This document shows, piece after piece, positions 8,438 to 62,914 of a DNA stretch of 64,000 bases. The notes beneath the pieces were generated by a model. The model worked only from the letters and a program-made list of their open reading frames with translations. It had not been told where the DNA came from and did not search any database. A program made the translations under genes and the position numbers. Every line of letters starts with the position of its first letter. The first letter of the stretch is position 1. Source of the stretch: Nitrospirae bacterium MYbin3 (GTDB taxonomy: Bacteria; Nitrospirota; Thermodesulfovibrionia; Thermodesulfovibrionales; Dissulfurispiraceae); NCBI GenBank assembly GCA_002753335.1, contig PEAD01000004.1, forward strand, positions 62,001-126,000, read 5' to 3'.

Positions 8438-10292
8438 GCTGGTACTCCTCCCGCCAGTCTCTCTCTTCTGCCCATGCCGCCTGATGTTTTTTCTCGAATA
8501 TGTTGTTGCCCAGAACAAGATAATCCATTTCGGTTCTCATAAAGCATTTGTAGGCATCTTCGGGGGTGCAGACTATAGGCTCTCCGCGAACATTGAAGCT
8601 TGTGTTTACCAAAAGGGCATAGCCTGTCCTCTCTTTGAATTTATCTATCAATGCCCAGTAGCGGGGATTGGTTTCCTTGTGCACTGTCTGCACCCTTGCC
8701 GAGTAATCAATGTGCGTTACGGATGGGATTTCTGAACGTATGTGATAAAGCATCTCTTTCAATGTCAGAGAATGGTAATTCGGCGGAAGCGGTTTTCTTA
8801 TGCTGTCTTTCACCGGCGCCACCAAAAGCATGTAGGGCGAGTCGGTCGCCAATTTGAAATATTTTTGCGACTCCTCTGCCTGCACAGAAGGTGCAAAGGG
8901 GCGGAAGCCCTCCCTGAATTTTATCTTGAGGTTCAGCTTTTTCTGCATTTCGCTGTTTCTGGCGTCAGCCAGAATGCTTCTGTTTCCGAGTGCGCGCGGA
9001 CCAAATTCCATACGACCCTGAAACCATCCAACCACATTCCCATCGGCAAGTATTCCAGCTGTTTTTTCGAATAGTTCGTTTGAATCGGCATAATGCGTAT
9101 AGACTGCTTTGTATTTTTTTGCAGTTTTCTGAATTTCGATATCCGAATATTCTGGACCGAGATAGGAGCCTTTCATCATATCCGCTTTTTCTGTGGCGGT
9201 ACGGGCGTTGTTGAAGTAAGTGTGATAGGCGCAGTAGGCGGCTCCCAACGCGCCCCCGGCATCTCCTGCAGCCGGTTGGATCCATATCTCGTCGAAAATG
9301 CCCTTTAATAACAACTTGCCGTTTGCAACACAGTTTAAAGCAACGCCTCCTGCAAGACAGATGCGCTTTGATCCGGTAATCTTGCGGGCTTCGGCAGCCA
9401 TTTTTAAAACTATCTCTTCTGTTATTTTTTGTATTGCAACTGCGAGGTCGCAATGCTCGGGCAGAAGTTCAGCCTCAGGCGAACGCCTAGTCATTCCGAA
9501 GAGTCCGGACCACTTTTCATCGCTGGTCATTTTTAGTCCAGTCGCATAATCGAAATAATCCTGATCGAGCCATATTGAACCGTCATCCTTTATATCGACA
9601 AGATGGGTTTTGATAATTTCGATATAGCGTGCGGTTCTTTCTGAATCTGCATTTCCATAAGGCGCAAGCCCCATGAGTTTGTATTCGCCCGAATTTACCT
9701 TGAAGCCCAAATAGTATGTAAAGGCAGAATATAAAAGCCCCAGAGAGTGCGGGAAGCGCAGTTCCTTTAGTATTGATATTTTGCTGTCCTGTCCATGGCA
9801 TATAGAAGCGGTTGCCCATTCTCCAACCCCGTCTATGGTGAGTATTGCCGCTTCATCAAAAGGCGAGGGGTAAAAGGCGCTTGCTGCGTGGGACAGATGG
9901 TGTTCGGGGAAAAGCAGCCTGATTTTGTCTTTGTCAAAATCTTCGATTTCTGCCAACCCGTCTAGAATCATTTTTTTCAGCATCAATTTTTCTTTTATCC
10001 ATACAGGCATAGCTGCTGTGAAGGATTTGAGGCCTGCAGGCGCAAAGGCATAATATGTTTCTAGCAGTCTTTCGAATTTAATAAAAGGCTTATCGTAAAA
10101 GGCCACGGCCGATAGCTCTTCTATCTGCACCCCGGCTTCATCAAGGCAGAACCTGATAGCGTTTGCAGGGAATGAAGCATCATGTTTTTTGCGCGTAAAA
10201 CGCTCTTCCTGAGCAGCTGCAACGATTTGTCCGTTGTGCAGCAGCGCTGCAGCCGAATCATGATAGAATGCGGCCAGCCCCAAAATATACAC
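8430..10292 (-). CDS. O-carbamoyltransferase, NodU/CmcH/SxtI family
   Basis: YHDSAAAL, EERFTRKKH, EHHLSHAASAF, GEYKLMGLAPYG, AGGVALN, EFGPRALGNRS, NTSFNVRGEP. Confidence 0.95.
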   Translation of the reverse strand: MYILGLAAFYHDSAAALLHNGQIVAAAQEERFTRKKHDASFPANAIRFCLDEAGVQIEELSAVAFYDKPFIKFERLLETYYAFAPAGLKSFTAAMPVWIKEKLMLKKMILDGLAEIEDFDKDKIRLLFPEHHLSHAASAFYPSPFDEAAILTIDGVGEWATASICHGQDSKISILKELRFPHSLGLLYSAFTYYLGFKVNSGEYKLMGLAPYGNADSERTARYIEIIKTHLVDIKDDGSIWLDQDYFDYATGLKMTSDEKWSGLFGMTRRSPEAELLPEHCDLAVAIQKITEEIVLKMAAEARKITGSKRICLAGGVALNCVANGKLLLKGIFDEIWIQPAAGDAGGALGAAYCAYHTYFNNARTATEKADMMKGSYLGPEYSDIEIQKTAKKYKAVYTHYADSNELFEKTAGILADGNVVGWFQGRMEFGPRALGNRSILADARNSEMQKKLNLKIKFREGFRPFAPSVQAEESQKYFKLATDSPYMLLVAPVKDSIRKPLPPNYHSLTLKEMLYHIRSEIPSVTHIDYSARVQTVHKETNPRYWALIDKFKERTGYALLVNTSFNVRGEPIVCTPEDAYKCFMRTEMDYLVLGNNIFEKKHQAAWAEERDWREEYQLD

Positions 10293-34592: not shown

Positions 34593-36878
34593 ATGGCCAC
34601 ATCGGCAAATTCAAACGACAACAAACTAGATCTCTCCAATATTGTGGGCTTGACCTCCGACCTGCTGTGCATAGCCCACACCGACGGATATTTCAAAAAA
34701 CTTAATAAGGCATGGACCGATATTCTCGGATATTCCATAGACGAGATGCTTTCAAAACCTATTTTTGATTTCATACATCCGGACGACCACGACACAACAG
34801 CAAAGGAAATCGGAAACCAGACAAAAGGGAAAACTACGCTGAATTTCATTAATCGCTACCGTGCAAAAGACGGCTCGTATCGATGGTTTGAATGGCGCGC
34901 AACGCCTGCCGATGCTGATGGATATTTGTTCGCCGCCGCAAGAGATATCAGCGAGCGGGTCCTCGCAGAAACTGCTTTGCGTGAAAATGAGGCCCGTCTG
35001 CGCGTAATATTCGATACATCTATAGCAGGAATTATTCTCGTTAGCCCTCAAGGCATCATAACCCTTGCCAATAATTTTATGTCAGATATGTTCGGATATA
35101 GCGCTGAGGAGATAATAGGTTTGCCATATACGGCTCTCATACATCCTGAAGAAAAATCCAGAGGCGACACGAAAATGCGCATGCTCATAAACCGGGAAAT
35201 AGACTTTGTGAACCTTGAACGGCACTATATACGCAAAGACGGAACAGATTTCTGGGGAAATTTAAGCGGCCGTCGTCAGGAGGACGAGAACGGCAAGCTG
35301 CTTAATCTTGTAGGCATTATCACCGACATAACCGAGCGCAAGAAAACAGAAAAGGCGCTCATATCGTCAGAAAAACGGTTCAGAGATCTGCTCGAAAATG
35401 TTCAATTAATAGCGGTTATACTTGATGATAAAGGCAACATCACCTTCTGCAATGACTATTTACTGAGACTGACAGGATGGTCGAGGGATGAGGTCATCAA
35501 CAAAAGCTGGTTCGAAATCTTTCTGCCCCATAATGTCAGGAATTCGGTCAAAACTATTTTCGATTCTGCAATAAAGGCTTCCAATATACCCACTCATTAT
35601 GAAAATCCGCTAATCACCCGCCAGGGAGCAGAATTAGATGTTGTTTGGGACAATGCTGCTATGCTGGACGGGCATGGCAGATGCATAGGTACAGCAAGCA
35701 TAGGCATAGACGTGACCGAACACCGAAAGGTCGAAGCACAGCTGAGGCAATCCCAGAAAATGGAGGCTGTCGGCCATCTGGCCGGAGGAGTAGCACATGA
35801 CTTCAACAATCTGCTGACAGCCATAATAGGGTATGCCGGACTTCTGAAAAACAAAATACTCTCCTCTGACAATACGCTGCATGATTATGTGCTGCAAATC
35901 CTTGCCGCATCGCAAAAGGCGGCCGACCTTACGCAAAGCCTTCTTGCTTTCAGCAGAAAGCAGATGTTGAACCCCAAGACTATAGACATAAATGAAATTA
36001 TTGGCAGCCTGCAAAAAATATTGATAAGGGTGATTGGTGAGGATATTGAACTAAAAGTGAACCGTACGAGCGCTAAACTGATCGTTAAGGCGGATCAAGG
36101 CCAAATAGAGCACGCGCTTATGAATCTGGCCACCAATGCCCGTGACGCAATGTCCAATGGAGGAATACTAACGATAACCTCAGAGCTCGGCAAAATAGAC
36201 AACCTTTTTGTACAAACACACGGATACGGTGATGGTGGTGCATATGCAGTAATTTCTGTTTCGGATACCGGCTCAGGCATGTCCGAAACCGTCAAACAGC
36301 ATATCTTCGAGCCATTTTTTACTACCAAAGAAGTGGGCAGAGGCACCGGTCTTGGTTTAGCTATGGTCTATGGAACAGTAAAACAGCATAACGGGTTTAT
36401 CATAGTAAACAGCGAACAGGGCAAAGGTTCCACTTTCAAAATATATCTGCCTTTGGTTGAAAAAGAATCAGAAATATCCCAGAAGCCGCAGGATTCCAAA
36501 ATAATCTTAGGCAGCGAGACTATCCTTCTCATAGAAGATGACGCATTTGTGCGGGATGTAACCTCAGCCTTGCTGCAAGAGCTCGGTTATACCGTGATAG
36601 AAGCAAACGGAGGAGAAGAAGCAAAAAAACTTTTTAACGAGAACAAAGACAGTATAGAGCTTGTCATATCTGATGTCATCATGCCCGGACAAAGCGGGAA
36701 AGAAGTGCATGAAGAACTGCTAAAAATCAAACCTGATCTAAAAATATTATTTATAAGCGGCTACGCAGCCCAATTTCTTTCTGAAAAAGGCATTTTAGAC
36801 AAAGGAATAAGCCTAATATCAAAACCGTTCAGATCCGATACCCTTTCGAGAAAAATCCGCGAGGTATTGGCTAAGTAG
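34593..36878 (+). CDS. Multi-PAS hybrid histidine kinase
   Basis: Three PAS/PAC repeats, GGVAHDFNN, HATPase, C-terminal receiver. Confidence 0.92.
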
Positions 36879-57667: not shown

Positions 57668-57908
57668 AGAGGTGTCCGGGTTTGTTTGGATACTTTGAAA
57701 CGATTTTTAAGTGGTAAACTGCTCTGCCTCATGCCGCTACCTCTATCTTCGGTAGTGTAGTCCAGTAAATCTCATTCGGCGTTCTGCCGTCAAGTCCTTG
57801 ATGCCGTCGCCGACTGTTGTAAAACTCAAAATAAGTTGCAAGCCCAATTCTGGCCTCTGATATAGAAACATAAGCCTTTAGATAAATATCTTCGTACTTC
57901 ACACTACG
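57668..57908 (-). mobile_element. IS3-family remnant (transposase C-terminus and right end)
   Basis: RSVKYEDIYLKAY...YFEFYNSRRRHQGLDGRTP followed by CACTTAAAA...TCCAAACAAACCCGGACACCTCT, resembling IS3 right ends. Confidence 0.75.
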
Positions 57909-58750
57909 CGAAGTAACAGAAAGTCTCTCGACCGCGCTGAACTTAGTGTTGATCATTTAAAACTATGCTTTGCGGGATGGCGACAAATGAAATAACAACA
58001 AATAATATTAACAAATACATCGACAACAGGCAGAAAAATGGGGCAAATGCCACAATAAACCGTGAACTTGCTGCACTCAAAAGGATGTTTTCTATAGGTT
58101 TTAACCAGACACCACACAAAATAATACGAATTCCTTCTTTAACTGAACACAATGTTCGCACAGGCTATTTTGAGCATCATGAATATCTTAAAATGTGTGA
58201 TGTTTTGCCTAGCCATATTAAACCGGTATTTATTATGGGTTATCGCACAGGTATGAGGATTTCAGAAATTCTTTCTCTTAATTGGGAAACAGTAAATATA
58301 TTTGATCGGAGGATAACGTTGGTGAATACAAAAAATAATGAGCCACGGATTATACCTCTTGTTGGGGAATTGTTTGATACGATTCTGAAGCAGAAGGTTC
58401 TCTGTGATAGTAGTTATTCAAAATTTCCATATGTTTTTTCCAGAAATCGAAAGCAGATTAAAGATTTCCGAGGGGTTTGGAACGCTGCATTTGAGAAAGC
58501 CGCGATAGAGCGCAAATTGTTTCATGACTTGAGGAGGACTGCTGTTAGAAATATGGTAAGGGCTGGGGTTGCTGAGAAGGTGTCAATGCAAATCTCAGGA
58601 CACAAAACCCGTGATGTTTTTGAGCGATACCATATTGTAAACGAAGATGATTTGAAGCTTGCTTTTCAAAAAGTTGACAGCATGCATGCTGAAACTGAAA
58701 AAGCTGTTGAGAAAGAAAACAGCGGGCACAAAACAGGCACAATCGGATAA
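57909..58750 (+). pseudogene. Tyrosine integrase, 5'-truncated and frameshifted
   Basis: ATINRELAALKRMF, RTGMRISE, TKN, FHDLRR, SGHKT, Y; the upstream segment RKSLDRAELSVDHLKLCFAG lies in another frame and is cut by the IS fragment. Confidence 0.8.
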
Positions 58751-58800: not shown

Positions 58801-58887
58801 TGGTGCCGGTGGGGAGGGTCGAACTCCCACGAGGTTGCCCTCACCGGATTTTGAGTCCGGCGCGTCTGCCAGTTCCACCACACCGGC
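58801..58887 (-). tRNA. tRNA-Leu(CAA)
   Basis: GCCGGTG acceptor, D-loop TGGCAGAC, anticodon arm CCGGA-CTCAAAA-TCCGG, long variable arm, GTTCGA T-loop, encoded CCA. Confidence 0.97.
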
Positions 58888-59037
58888 TGTGGAAATTATC
58901 TTAGAGCATCAACGAGTTGCAGAATATTGTAGCCTATCACAAAGTATTCGTTAGTGTCAAAACTAGCGGTATGCTTTAATCTCTGACAATGCTTATTAAT
59001 CAAAAACGTACTTGACAAGAATCAAAAACTTACTTGC

Positions 59038-59066
59038 TTGACAAGAAAATAATTTTGTTTTATCGT
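59038..59066 (+). promoter_or_regulatory. Putative sigma70 promoter upstream of the YeiH-family gene
   Basis: TTGACA-N17-TATCGT, embedded in direct repeats. Confidence 0.45.
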
Positions 59067-59145: not shown

Positions 59146-60687
59146 GTGTTTTATATGGCCCCAAAAGGAAGTAGCCTGTCGGATTTGTGGAAAAATGAGG
59201 ACTGGCTTGCTGTCTGGATAGGTTTTTTCATAATCGCTATGGTACTCATTTTTAACCAGTGGAGCATAATAGACTTAAAAAAGGTGTCGCCCGGGCACAA
59301 ATGGGCAACTGATGGTCAGATAGCCTCGCGTGTTGAAAAATGGAATGCCGCTATAGACCCTCTAATGAAAGATGCCGAGGCAAAAGGTGAACAGGGAGCT
59401 GTGGTGCGCTTGCAGGGCTTGAAAGAGACATTGCAGAAAGGCGATAGGAAATCGATTGCTGAAGCTGCAGGCAGAGTTGAGCGTATGGGCGGATTGGTTG
59501 GTGAGCTTGGCAAGGAGGTTGGTGCACACGCAAAGGCAGAGCCGGCTAAGCTATTTACTGCTGACAATCTAACAAGAGGTTTTAAAATATGCGTGGCTTT
59601 TATGATTATAGCTACGATTGGCCTCAAGATGATGGGTAGTGTGAACCTAGGCAAGTTTGTTTTAGGTTTCCCAATTGTATTTATTCTTGCATGGCTTGCC
59701 CGTTTAATTGCAGGCAATGCAGCTCCGGGTGATTGGGGCATAGAATATGTGGTATTTTCACTTGCAATAGGCCTGATACTCAGCAATCTCATAGGGCTTC
59801 CAGCATGGCTTATGGAGGCTGTGAGAACCGAATATTACATCAAATCAGGGCTTGTTATTCTTGGCGCCGGGCTTCTTTTTTTCGAGATATTGCAGGCTGG
59901 CGCGCTTGGTATAATGCAGGCCATAGGTGTAGTTTTTGTGGTGTGGTATGCCTGTTATTGGCTTGCAAAGAAGCTTAAGGTTGATGATGAATTTGCGGTT
60001 ATGCTGTCAAGCGCAGTGTCGATATGCGGAGTTTCAGCCGCAATCGCAACATGCGGAGCAATTGAGGGCGACAAGAAAAAACTGTCTTATGTTACTTCAC
60101 TCGTTCTGATAGTGGCTGTGCCTATGATGGTGATAATGCCTTGGGCTGTAAAGGCCTTTGGAATTCCGGATATAGTCGGCGGGGCATGGCTGGGCGGCAC
60201 GCTCGATACGAGCGGTTCTGTTGTTGCTGCAGGCGCGCTGATAAGCGAGGCTGCGATGAAAACAGGGGTTATCGTTAAGTTTTCGCAAAATGCGCTCATC
60301 GGTGTTGCTGCATTTATACTTTCGATATGGTGGACATGCAAAAAAGGAGCTGAATGCGGCGAAAAGCCTACTGCTCGTATAATATGGGATCGTTTCCCCA
60401 AATTCGTGCTTGGCTTTATAGTCGCTTCGGTCTTTTTCTCTTTCTTTCTGCATATAGATACGGTAAACGCCACTAAAAGTCTTCTCGGAGACTTAAGGAC
60501 ATGGTGGTTCGCACTTGCTTTCGTATCTATCGGCCTCGAAACGCGCTTTGTAGATATAGCTAAGATGGAGGGCGGCAGGCCCGCACTGGCCTTTATTGCT
60601 GCGCAGACGTTTAATGTTATATGGACTCTGATTTTAGCGTACATACTGTTTGGAGGGTATATATTCCCGGTGCCTGATATAAAATAA
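59146..60687 (+). CDS. YeiH/UPF0324 (putative sulfate exporter) family transporter
   Basis: NEDWLAVWIG, EYYIKSGLVILG, SICGVSAAIA, WLGGTLDT, FPKFVLGF, LAFVSIGL; GTG 59146 or ATG 59155 start. Confidence 0.88.
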   Translation: MFYMAPKGSSLSDLWKNEDWLAVWIGFFIIAMVLIFNQWSIIDLKKVSPGHKWATDGQIASRVEKWNAAIDPLMKDAEAKGEQGAVVRLQGLKETLQKGDRKSIAEAAGRVERMGGLVGELGKEVGAHAKAEPAKLFTADNLTRGFKICVAFMIIATIGLKMMGSVNLGKFVLGFPIVFILAWLARLIAGNAAPGDWGIEYVVFSLAIGLILSNLIGLPAWLMEAVRTEYYIKSGLVILGAGLLFFEILQAGALGIMQAIGVVFVVWYACYWLAKKLKVDDEFAVMLSSAVSICGVSAAIATCGAIEGDKKKLSYVTSLVLIVAVPMMVIMPWAVKAFGIPDIVGGAWLGGTLDTSGSVVAAGALISEAAMKTGVIVKFSQNALIGVAAFILSIWWTCKKGAECGEKPTARIIWDRFPKFVLGFIVASVFFSFFLHIDTVNATKSLLGDLRTWWFALAFVSIGLETRFVDIAKMEGGRPALAFIAAQTFNVIWTLILAYILFGGYIFPVPDIK

Positions 60688-60739
60688 CAGGACCCCGGCA
60701 GAAAAAAATAAATACTATCTGGAAGGAGGTGAACTATCG

Positions 60740-61240
60740 ATGAGTAAACGTTTAATCGCTTTTGTTGTGGTTGTTTTCTTCATCGCAAGCGGCAGTATAG
60801 TTTTGGCTCAACAGTACTCTGCCAATGCTATGAAAAAAATCGAAGAGCTTAAGATTATGAGCAGAGATAAAAAAGATATGCCCGAGAGCATGCCTGGAGT
60901 CAAAAAGATCACTGCTGAAGAGCTAAAGAAATGGCTAGAAACAAACAAGAAGTTTGTGTTTCTCGACAACAGAGTGCCTGCTGATTTTGAAAAGGAACGG
61001 ATTGCTAAGGCTGTTCGGCTTTCTCCGGATGACCTGCTTGAAAAAGGGCCTAAAGCAGCAGAACAACTCGGGCTTAAAAAAGACGATACGATTGTCTTTT
61101 ACTGAAACGGCATTAAATGCTGGAGGTCTTCCGGCGCAATAATTCTGCTTCAGGATCTTGGGTATAAAAACATTTACTGGTATCGCGAAGGTATTCCGGA
61201 TTGGATAAAGAAAGGCTATCCGACTACCGAGGGCAAATAA
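60740..61240 (+). CDS. Exported rhodanese-domain selenoprotein (Sec at codon 122; 166 aa)
   Basis: Signal peptide; ORF track stops at IVFY-TGA (61103-61105) but the frame continues NGIKCWRS...GYKNIYWYREGIPDW..KGYP to TAA 61240, completing the rhodanese fold with UGA at the catalytic Cys. Confidence 0.9.
61119..61135 (+). promoter_or_regulatory. Bacterial SECIS-like hairpin
   Basis: GCTGGA-GGTCT-TCCGGC; AGGTCT begins 18 nt after the UGA, same apical hexamer as the E. coli fdhF SECIS. Confidence 0.75.
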
Positions 61241-61256
61241 GCAGCAATCGGAATCG

Positions 61257-61295
61257 CATAAGAGGGGTATGTCTTACACACATACCCCTCTTATG
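61257..61295 (+). terminator. Hairpin after the seleno-rhodanese gene
   Basis: CATAAGAGGGGTATGT-N7-ACATACCCCTCTTATG, 16-bp stem starting 17 nt after the read-through stop. Confidence 0.75.
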
Positions 61296-61367
61296 TATCT
61301 ATTTTTTATTTGCGAGGGAGACGATGTTTTTGATTGAGAATTATATAATGATAAGACAGGAACAGGC

Positions 61368-62111
61368 ATGGATTTAGGAATACTCGGCACTATAACTCTT
61401 GACTGGAATTTTGCATCGGCATTATTCAGCATAATTATTATAGACCTGATTCTTGCAGGCGATAATGCTGTTGTAATCGCTATGGCGGTGCGCTCTCTGC
61501 CCCATGAACAGCGAAAGAAAGGCATACTTTTTGGTGCCGGAGCCGCGGTGTTGTTGAGAGTTATTCTGACCTTTTTTGTTGCTCAATTGCTTCAGGTAAG
61601 CTTTATCAAGCTTGTCGGAGGCATTTTGATAACATGGATCGCGGTGAAACTTTTTATGGAAGGCGTGCCGGATGAGAGTATTGACAAAGAAGCCACAACC
61701 ATCGGGCAGGCTATTAAGCTGATTGTTATCGCGGATATAACGATGGCTACAGACAACATGCTTGCTGTGGGCGGGGCTTCGCAAGGCAACCTTTTTCTTT
61801 TGTTGTTTGGACTAGGGCTCAGCATTCCGTTTGTCGTATTCACAAGCAACCTGCTTTCTATGCTTATGGATAAATATCCGGCGATAATATATATAGGCGC
61901 TGCAATTCTCGGTAAGGTGGGCGGAGAGATGATAATTACGGACCCTTTTACCGAAAGACTGCTGGCTCCGGGCAAGGCTACTATTTATATGGTTGAAGCT
62001 GTTTTTGCAGCAGGAGTTATCGTTACCGGAAAACTTTTGCTTAAGTGGAAAATTGTAAGGGCTGCGAAAAAAGAACATATCCATGATGCTGATAAGCCGG
62101 AGGAGGATTAA
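61368..62111 (+). CDS. TerC family (YjbE-like) membrane protein
   Basis: IDLILAGDNAVVIA and IADITMATDNMLAV motifs. Confidence 0.9.
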   Translation: MDLGILGTITLDWNFASALFSIIIIDLILAGDNAVVIAMAVRSLPHEQRKKGILFGAGAAVLLRVILTFFVAQLLQVSFIKLVGGILITWIAVKLFMEGVPDESIDKEATTIGQAIKLIVIADITMATDNMLAVGGASQGNLFLLLFGLGLSIPFVVFTSNLLSMLMDKYPAIIYIGAAILGKVGGEMIITDPFTERLLAPGKATIYMVEAVFAAGVIVTGKLLLKWKIVRAAKKEHIHDADKPEED

Positions 62112-62914
62112 TGGCTATTTTAACCATATCGAGAGAGATCGGAAGCGGCGGGCGTGAAATAGGATATAAAATTGCCGACCTCATGGGATACGAGCTTATA
62201 ACCAAAGAAAGGCTTCTTTCAGATATTAAAGAGTGGGGCGCTAAATGGGAAAACTGGGGAAAGATTCTGGATGAGCACCATCCCACAGTATGGGAAAAAT
62301 ACGACTGGTCTTTTAAAGGTTTTTGTGCACTTATGCAAAACCAGATGCTGCAATACGCATTAAAAGACAAAGTTGTCTTGTTGGGAAGAGGCGGCAACTT
62401 TCTGTTTAACGACATACCTTATGCTCTCAGAATACGCATAATTGCGCCTGTAAAATATCGAGCAGAAAGAATAATGAAGCGTGATTCTGTTGATATAGAG
62501 ACGGCCCGATGGATTATAGAAAAAACCGACAAGGAAAGGTCGGGGTTTATCAGAGCCCTTTACGGAGAAGATTTGAATGCTCTGTCCGAATATGATATTA
62601 CATTCGATACAAGCACGCGTCCGCTTGAAGGGATAATAGCTTCGGTTAAAGCTGCGCTAGCAGACAAAGAAAGGTTTAATACACCTAATAACTGTGAAAA
62701 ACTGCGCCTGCACGCACTCGCTGCAAAGATAAAGGCGGTGATACTTACGGATCCGACATTCTTTATTCCCACGCTTGATATTGACGATGACGGAGAAGGC
62801 TTGATTCTTAAGGGCGTGATACACAATCCGAAAGAACACAAGCGCATCGAAGATACTGTGCAAAAACTGGCCGGAGATACAAAGGTTAGGTGCAAACTCC
62901 ATTACAGGAGTTAA
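62111..62914 (+). CDS. Cytidylate kinase-like protein with C-terminal BON-like domain
   Basis: ISREIGSGG, VLLGRGG, R.ERI, D.ER..F, YD; C-terminal LKGV segment. Confidence 0.75.
   Translation: MAILTISREIGSGGREIGYKIADLMGYELITKERLLSDIKEWGAKWENWGKILDEHHPTVWEKYDWSFKGFCALMQNQMLQYALKDKVVLLGRGGNFLFNDIPYALRIRIIAPVKYRAERIMKRDSVDIETARWIIEKTDKERSGFIRALYGEDLNALSEYDITFDTSTRPLEGIIASVKAALADKERFNTPNNCEKLRLHALAAKIKAVILTDPTFFIPTLDIDDDGEGLILKGVIHNPKEHKRIEDTVQKLAGDTKVRCKLHYRS

Follow-up and report, generated by a model that had tools for sequence, protein, structure and literature searches.

Near the end of a 64,000-nucleotide (nt) stretch of DNA from Nitrospirae bacterium MYbin3 (contig PEAD01000004.1, positions 62,001 to 126,000; this whole stretch is the window, and positions are counted from its first letter), a transporter gene is followed by what public protein sets hold as a shortened rhodanese. 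The transporter gene, yeiH (59146–60687, + strand), identified from the list of open reading frames (ORFs) and by profile search, encodes a member of the YeiH/UPF0324 family (PF03601) of a long, 513-amino-acid (aa) subtype. Its stop codon lies 52 nt from the ATG of a 121-aa ORF (60740–61105, +), which has the Shine-Dalgarno sequence AGGAGGT on its 5′ side (60724–60730, +) and whose stop is a TGA placed directly after IVFY. If that TGA (61103–61105) is read as selenocysteine (Sec, U), the frame continues for 44 further codons to a TAA at 61238–61240 and yields 166 aa in total, with the loop Y-U122-N-G-I-K-C127-W-R-S. Read-through translation, profile, and model together suggest a complete selenoprotein coding sequence (60740–61240, +) made up of a signal peptide, an extra N-terminal helix (residues 28–42), and one rhodanese domain; 3′ of the TAA, folding predicts an intrinsic terminator-like element (61256–61311, +) whose 17-pair hairpin with T-tract was placed at 61256–61296 (z −7.16). 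An earlier note on this DNA had proposed the read-through, and everything it stated about the sequence itself (the 121-aa ORF, the IVFY-TGA ending, the 44 extra codons, an AGGTCT at 18 nt, the 52-nt gap, and the terminator) checked out.

Evidence for Selenocysteine

Comparison with homologues and metagenome loci indicates that the in-frame TGA (61103–61105, +) almost certainly encodes selenocysteine, Sec122, at the catalytic position of the rhodanese. The selenocysteine machinery on which such a reading depends was found elsewhere in the MYbin3 genome (G000), where selA, selB, selC (tRNA-Sec), and selD all score over cut-off, and where selD itself carries an in-frame TGA. A homologue search returned 201 candidates, of which 134 passed and the best 120 were used; among these 120, position 122 is Cys in all 65 full-length proteins and U in none, and 54 of the 55 short proteins, MYbin3's own 121-aa record included, end at Tyr121, the remaining one ending earlier. 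The earlier note had expected standard annotation to shorten the protein, and public sets do hold the 121-aa form (HSB31452.1 is an example of a record that ends before the Sec).

A scan of metagenomes, made with a pattern that left the codons of the selenocysteine insertion sequence (SECIS) largely free, found 66 loci, 47 with TGA and 19 with TGC or TGT at codon 122. Conservation downstream of the UGA, and the presence of Cys or Sec at position 122 in relatives, are both as the earlier note anticipated: in 44 of the 47 TGA loci the frame stays open for 44 or 51 codons before a stop, and in the other three it runs off the contig. Because 42 distinct homologous genes have TGA at the same codon, we take it to be more than chance. 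The distribution of selA agrees with that of the TGA, since the gene is present in all eight TGA-bearing genomes checked (G000, G023, G041, G270, G061–G063, and G478); in one check of 36 carrier genomes it was found in 33, and the three without it carry Cys alleles. G064, with only a weak selA fragment, has a Cys allele. A reassignment of TGA to tryptophan was rejected because homologues carry Cys at this position and because selA, selB, and aprA are without internal TGA.

The predicted SECIS hairpin (61119–61135, +; by comparison and folding) has a 6-pair stem and a GGUCU loop and lies on the C-W-R-S-S-G codons; its AGGTCT, beginning 18 nt past the UGA, forms an apex that we take to be of the fdhF type. 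Considered alone the hairpin is weak (z −1.84 over 38 nt), and over 58 nt a different fold wins, which counts against it. What decides in its favor is comparison. The set covered 93 distinct ingroup genes (98 rows minus 5 outgroup rows, from 119 loci before duplicate removal, with short fragments dropped); in it, every one of the 42 Sec genes has the GCUGG stem, GGUC loop, and CC(A/G)GC 3′ arm intact, as against 11 of the 51 Cys genes. The criterion for an intact hairpin was set after the Sec set had been viewed, which makes the figure of 42/42 circular in part but leaves the codon counts unaffected. Sec genes write R129 as AGG or CGG only, Pro131 as CCA in eight of eight, and Ser-Gly as TCC GGC in 34 of 34; the stem therefore survives an amino acid change by a one-base shift in register. 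No such restriction is seen at the codon for Gly124, which lies 5′ of the hairpin, and Cys genes draw on many codons at each of these sites. Phylogenetically independent pairs differ in the expected direction in 6.3 of 9 comparisons and never in the opposite one (median p 0.031, range 0.008–0.125), and a tree built on 147 columns needs 11 Sec/Cys changes, counted without direction, of which at least nine are forced by supported branches.

It is against this body of data that one must set the possibility that translation truly stops at the TGA, or that the codon reflects a pseudogene lesion or a fault in the assembly. The 121-aa form in the public protein sets and the weakness of the hairpin in isolation speak for such an explanation; the recurrence of TGA in 42 distinct genes with conserved read-through, the presence of selA in every TGA genome checked, and the fixation of the SECIS codons in TGA genes only speak against it, and we regard it as extremely improbable. 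This is a real, unannotated selenoprotein subfamily, and the comparative evidence for it is unusually strong. With at least nine Sec/Cys switches and a SECIS laid over conserved W-R-S codons, it offers a clean model of selenoprotein gain and loss.

The Rhodanese Protein

The rhodanese fold with a U-x4-C motif, as first proposed from the letters of the sequence, is supported. Reading through the TGA completes the Pfam Rhodanese domain (PF00581, 62.2 bits versus a cut-off of 22.2, profile positions 1–101 of 102), and an AlphaFold2 model (Cys at 122, 40 sequences; predicted local distance difference test score [pLDDT] 85) matches solved rhodaneses. A structure search returned only distant rhodaneses (13–29% identity), and the ESM Atlas only generic rhodanese clusters; in the hidden Markov model (HMM) alignment, the nucleophile stands at the usual position. 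The protein is very probably exported. A predicted signal peptide for the Sec secretion pathway (about residues 1–23, ending VLA; 60740–60808, +), which the earlier note had also seen, is recognizable by inspection and coincides with low pLDDT at residues 1–20, and 49 of 51 homologues have a signal-like N-terminus, with no lipobox and no Tat motif, according to a crude script.

Cys127 (61118–61120, +), the second Cys of the U-x4-C loop, is invariant in both alignments. Together with the U/U loop of the selenoprotein TsoB, which is joined there to a DsbD-like fusion, and with the C-x4-U rhodaneses of MYbin3, this invariance points to what may be a selenium-sulfur redox pair recycled from the membrane. 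Those other MYbin3 rhodaneses are two exported C-x4-U proteins, one single-domain and one multi-domain (C57:52739–53176 and C12:1778–3181), one of which reads U-R-L-S.

The YeiH Transporter and Its Neighbors

The window YeiH matches PF03601 with 148.9 bits (cut-off 24.5), has about 11 hydrophobic segments and a hydrophilic stretch at approximately residues 37–141, and carries a cysteine, Cys294 in S-I-C-G-V-S, that is invariant in 47 of 47 long rows; it is the one YeiH gene of the MYbin3 genome. Its association with the rhodanese was followed through 66 loci. Besides the window, these were 20 regions of genomes, 16 loci on genome contigs, and those 29 of the 66 metagenome loci that measure 3.5 kb or more, after removal of one distant homologue; the set includes duplicates and close kin, and many of its loci are cut by contig ends. 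In 54 of the 57 loci not linked to a chemoreceptor, YeiH lies within 4.5 kb of the rhodanese, the three misses being short contigs, and it does so in 25 of 26 Sec loci; the earlier note's expectation that homologues stay beside YeiH genes is thus borne out. The YeiH partners belong to at least three deeply split subtypes and may stand upstream or downstream of the rhodanese.

This linkage is conserved but one-way. Of 61 relatives, 51 have YeiH-family genes and 15 have the rhodanese family (E below 1e-30), and among 15 genomes with the window's YeiH subtype the rhodanese is directly downstream in seven, about 1.5 kb upstream in one, absent within 1.5 kb in five, and cut off in two. It speaks for another explanation, in which the rhodanese is a periplasmic oxidoreductase of general use, acting on thiols and disulfides or removing persulfides, and its place in one cassette with YeiH reflects nothing more than regulation or history; the U-x4-C motif and a MauE-like partner do resemble disulfide-handling systems. 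We nevertheless consider this decidedly improbable, given that the two genes stay neighbors across at least three YeiH subtypes that diverged deeply, whichever of the two comes first.

The description of rhodanese and yeiH as a two-gene unit fits MYbin3, where the terminator follows the pair; in relatives the pair sits within a larger cassette with MauE, TerC, CMK-like/BON, USP, and tandem-rhodanese partners. Apart from YeiH, the neighbors counted within 4.5 kb across the 57 loci included MauE/DoxX (34 loci), TerC (27), CMK-like/BON (21), USP (17), radical SAM (14), an exported tandem rhodanese (12), and a P-type ATPase (11). Two of these partners also lie beyond the terminator in the window: profile searches identify a TerC/YjbE-family membrane protein (61368–62111, +) and a cytidylate-kinase-like (CMK-like) protein with a weak BON match (62111–62914, +), the former a frequent cassette partner in relatives and the latter a cassette partner there as well. 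No riboswitch was found before terC, and an Rfam scan near the locus matched tRNA only. A hidden Sec was looked for in the MauE partner, and none was seen in 20 loci, the printed copies reading CGCFG.

The TerC and P-type ATPase neighbors raise the possibility of a module for reduction or detoxification of selenite, tellurite, or metal(loid) oxyanions. The tandem rhodanese weakly matches ExtH (49.8 versus a cut-off of 200), and longer loops are seen in rhodanese-fold arsenate reductases. Set against this, TerC/YjbE is a generic metal-transport family, carriers without selA keep a Cys copy together with YeiH, and no link between YeiH and selenium was found in the literature searched. Such a module seems quite unlikely to us.

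Nine Cys-type loci have a different neighbor, the gene for an 817-aa chemoreceptor. They form a separate, Cys-only subclade (L201–L205, L052, L053, L055, L056) whose genes stand directly upstream of the chemoreceptor, sometimes within a chemotaxis cluster that also includes a periplasmic binding protein, and possibly represent a module for chemotaxis toward sulfur species. The rhodanese at large might be mainly a periplasmic protein that binds or senses sulfur species, its sulfane-modified Sec/Cys loop signaling to a membrane partner (a transporter gate, a two-component kinase, or a chemoreceptor). The position of some of the nine within che clusters, the likeness of the chemoreceptor's extracellular part to helical-bundle sensor domains (a lead only), the occurrence of other loci beside USPs and sigma-54 two-component systems with Tll0287-like sensors, and the non-canonical loop would all be in keeping with sensing. 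But the loci linked to chemoreceptors form a subclade apart, with Cys throughout, and on general grounds the repeated retention of Sec fits catalysis better, so that we think a sensing role unlikely.

Several further observations were made on these cassettes. At L198 and L199, directly upstream of the rhodanese-YeiH pair, there are sigma-54 two-component systems whose Tll0287-like sensor has a heme motif. In the space that separates the rhodanese gene from the MauE gene, a regular expression detected a conserved ORF of about 48–59 codons for a single-transmembrane peptide, one that would likely escape gene callers; it was seen at 11 of the 66 loci (L186, L042, L079, L083, L090, L094, L102, L119, L127, L128, and L140). 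A protein of 190–200 aa without a Pfam or NCBIfam match (cluster C6; e.g., L188:4465–5058) comes after the rhodanese or YeiH in 14 of 57 loci.

On the 5′ side of yeiH there is a sigma-70-like promoter match, TTGACA-17-TATCGT (59038–59066, +), by consensus only; six such sites were observed in the region versus 7.4 expected by chance, and the match is accordingly no evidence of function. A sigma-54 promoter at this place was rejected, its pattern having matched 1 of 27 loci. Just 5′ of the predicted −35 box is a 17-nt direct repeat (58998–59036; two copies 22 nt apart, one mismatch) that is possibly a regulator site and that was not evident by eye in the upstream regions of relatives. Farther out, a tRNA with anticodon CAA (58804–58887, −) adjoins an ORF of the phage integrase family (57965–58750), and a transposase-like fragment (57729–57956) was recognized by eye; the segment 57729–58887 is likely the remnant of an integration site.

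Distribution and Other Selenoproteins

Of 301 genomes sampled from the window's phylum, 28 have the rhodanese family, as do 5 of 301 from the phylum of genome G062. Named close homologues are Nitrospirota and Thermodesulfobacteriota records, two Burkholderiales, and one Thermoleophilia, in line with a host from the Nitrospirota. Forty of 42 carrier genomes have dsrA, and aprA is present in MYbin3.

The MYbin3 genome has several other likely selenoproteins. They include an exported DsbA-like protein with U-P-H-C (C8, − strand, near 36843), a small zinc-ribbon-like protein ending U-A-A-A-C-U (C1, +, near 71952), and a short protein with P-G-C-U (C8, −, near 10120). On contig C46 (−, near 68012) the frame of a membrane protein that is YeeE/YedE-like by eye contains TGA twice (G-R-Y-U and G-G-U-T-V-G); the YeeE/YedE family is listed with one Sec in a selenoprotein review (PMC13188914).

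Proposed Function

Some role in the handling of sulfur oxyanions, linked to YeiH, seems reasonably likely for the seleno-rhodanese, the two proteins probably forming a module that deals with sulfite. The sulfur context of such a role is given by the dsrA of nearly all carriers (40 of 42), the aprA of MYbin3, and the exported tandem rhodanese of 12 of the 57 loci. As to how the two proteins might be coupled, we tentatively propose, with less confidence than in the role itself, that YeiH exports sulfite and that the periplasmic selenoenzyme forms thiosulfate from it with sulfane sulfur. We chose sulfite export because the resistance of Salmonella to sulfite is reported to be driven mainly by YeiH (PMC12880088) and because YeiH has been proposed to export sulfite in Hyphomicrobium and Paracoccus, with 526-fold induction by thiosulfate in Hyphomicrobium (PMC11582611). 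Either polysulfide or thiosulfate would supply Sec122 with sulfane sulfur; the surplus of sulfite arising in the Apr/Dsr pathway would leave the cell through YeiH; and the seleno-rhodanese would transfer the sulfane sulfur to the exported sulfite to give thiosulfate, a reaction that could be reversible. Cys127 and Sec122 could close a selenenylsulfide that is re-reduced through the membrane, the candidate reductant in relatives being the CGCFG-bearing MauE-like partner and, in MYbin3, presumably some other reductant. The coupling between rhodanese and YeiH would be metabolic, and physical contact would not be required.

A number of findings weigh against this proposal. The window YeiH falls below the cut-off of TIGR00698 (73.2 versus 232.6), and because it belongs to so divergent a subtype its substrate is extrapolated. 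The same subtype occurs without the rhodanese in 5 of 13 informative genomes, which leaves the hand-off of sulfur or selenium to a "dedicated carrier" in the earlier note no more than a possibility; in the literature YeiH is connected with resistance to sulfite or with its export, and not with uptake of sulfane sulfur or selenium. Eight of the nine chemoreceptor-linked loci are without YeiH nearby. The classical sulfurtransferase active loop has six residues from the nucleophile. Here the loop has eight (U-x6-R), two more than in PspE and 6mxv in the HMM alignment; its chemistry may therefore differ, and classical sulfurtransferase activity is not assured. By tblastn the MYbin3 genome, which is 93.7% complete, holds no homologue of the MauE-like protein, the tandem rhodanese, or cluster C6. 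Finally, dsrA is absent from the two Burkholderiales carriers, and its co-occurrence with the rhodanese is confounded by lineage, kin not being independent, so that we treat it as context and not as a test.

The same components could also work in the opposite direction, which comes near to what the earlier note had in mind, with the selenoenzyme cleaving thiosulfate or polysulfide by means of U-x4-C and membrane electrons, and YeiH importing sulfite or other sulfur species for DsrAB respiration or disproportionation. The frequency of dsrA among carriers would suit an import of this kind, as would a supply of reductant, which is suggested by the DsbD-like fusion of TsoB and by the MauE-like membrane protein with its CxC, present at 34 of the 57 loci; periplasmic rhodaneses are, moreover, described as highly expressed in Desulfurivibrio and cable bacteria (PMC13047784). 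Yet the characterized YeiH and SuyZ proteins are associated with export or resistance, a separate YeeE-type gene in MYbin3 could import thiosulfate, and a 2026 survey in ISME J reports no link between rhodaneses of SseA type, a different subfamily, and disproportionation (PMC12998232). We judge import to be unlikely.

A more elaborate arrangement, an as yet undescribed module for sulfur trafficking, is rather unlikely but worth stating. In Dsr-bearing Nitrospirota and some Desulfobacterota, the UxxxxC seleno-rhodanese might dock on the hydrophilic domain of the long YeiH and, with electrons from MauE, interconvert thiosulfate or polysulfide and sulfite at the mouth of the carrier, the same domain having been re-used as the sulfur sensor of a chemoreceptor. 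If true, this docking module would be a molybdenum-free route into sulfite respiration or disproportionation. The association with YeiH also offers a testable way into a family of transporters about which little is understood, and into how Nitrospirota that reduce sulfate or disproportionate sulfur handle sulfur in the periplasm.

Relation to Known Systems

Selenocysteine-containing rhodaneses are already known as a kind, and this limits the surprise. An inventory of May 2026 (PMC13188914) covers 119 families, with five Sec-rhodanese forms, UxxS, UxxG, CxU, UxxG, and UxxxxU; a stand-alone UxxxxC rhodanese is not among the five forms of its Table 1, and its main text lacks the word "YeiH," just as the main text of the deep-Sep paper (PMC12013277) lacks both "rhodanese" and "YeiH." No model of NCBIfam 20.0 passes its cut-off on the rhodanese protein, and we found no published description of a UxxxxC rhodanese family beside YeiH in the literature searched, which mostly excluded subscription journals and supplements. 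Because PMC9312934 separates subfamilies when one and the same domain has its Sec at another site or in another motif, we rank the UxxxxC rhodanese as a subfamily of its own; neither the inventory nor NCBIfam 20.0 includes it, and public sets shorten it.

The four forms of the inventory other than UxxxxU (forms 1, 2, and 4, PF00581 with UxxS, UxxG, and UxxG; form 3, NF041203 with CxU) share with our protein the rhodanese fold and a Sec in the active loop. The motif U-N-G-I/V-K-C fits neither UxxS nor UxxG, the distinction from forms 1, 2, and 4 being drawn by the listed motifs only; form 1 is presumably the C-x4-U type of MYbin3's other rhodaneses. Against form 3, rhodanese_LYCAU, our rhodanese scores 51.4 bits where the cut-off is 115, and its motif is U-N-G. 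The rhodanese-like PQQ CXXCW protein (TIGR03865) has a C-x4-C-W loop and matches residues 113–164 weakly, at 50.9 bits versus a cut-off of 128; none of five genomes tested passes, and the context there is PQQ-dependent alcohol uptake whereas here it is YeiH.

PspE, GlpE, and the periplasmic Sud of Wolinella have the same fold (GlpE, E 1.4e-4; Sud, E 1.8e-4) and the same nucleophile position. Our rhodanese differs from them in having a loop two residues longer instead of the six-residue PspE/GlpE type, a second Cys, an extra N-terminal helix, and Sec. On the transporter side, the Salmonella YeiE-YeiH system and the PSE/SuyZ exporters are likewise PF03601 proteins with the invariant Cys of S-I-C-G; the window YeiH is set apart by its 513-aa subtype with a hydrophilic insertion, by the lack of an adjacent LysR gene in the window, and by its pairing with an exported rhodanese.

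The closest known relative is TsoB (NF045694; form 5, UxxxxU, of PMC13188914), the best NCBIfam match, whose N-terminal rhodanese domain is 30–35% identical to residues 53–161 and which shares the loop frame IVFY-U-x-G-x-x-U/C-x-R-S with Sec in the first position. TsoB, however, is a protein of about 570 aa with a DsbD-like fusion and two Sec residues, whereas ours stands alone at 166 aa with one Sec and a Cys and reaches only 65.8 bits on a model whose cut-off is 805. Both families are present, in separate places, in the genomes G061 and G062; TsoX was over cut-off in none of 41 genomes, MYbin3 and 40 relatives. With C-x4-U, U-x4-U, and now U-x4-C, the series of loops provides a natural test of what Sec contributes at each position.

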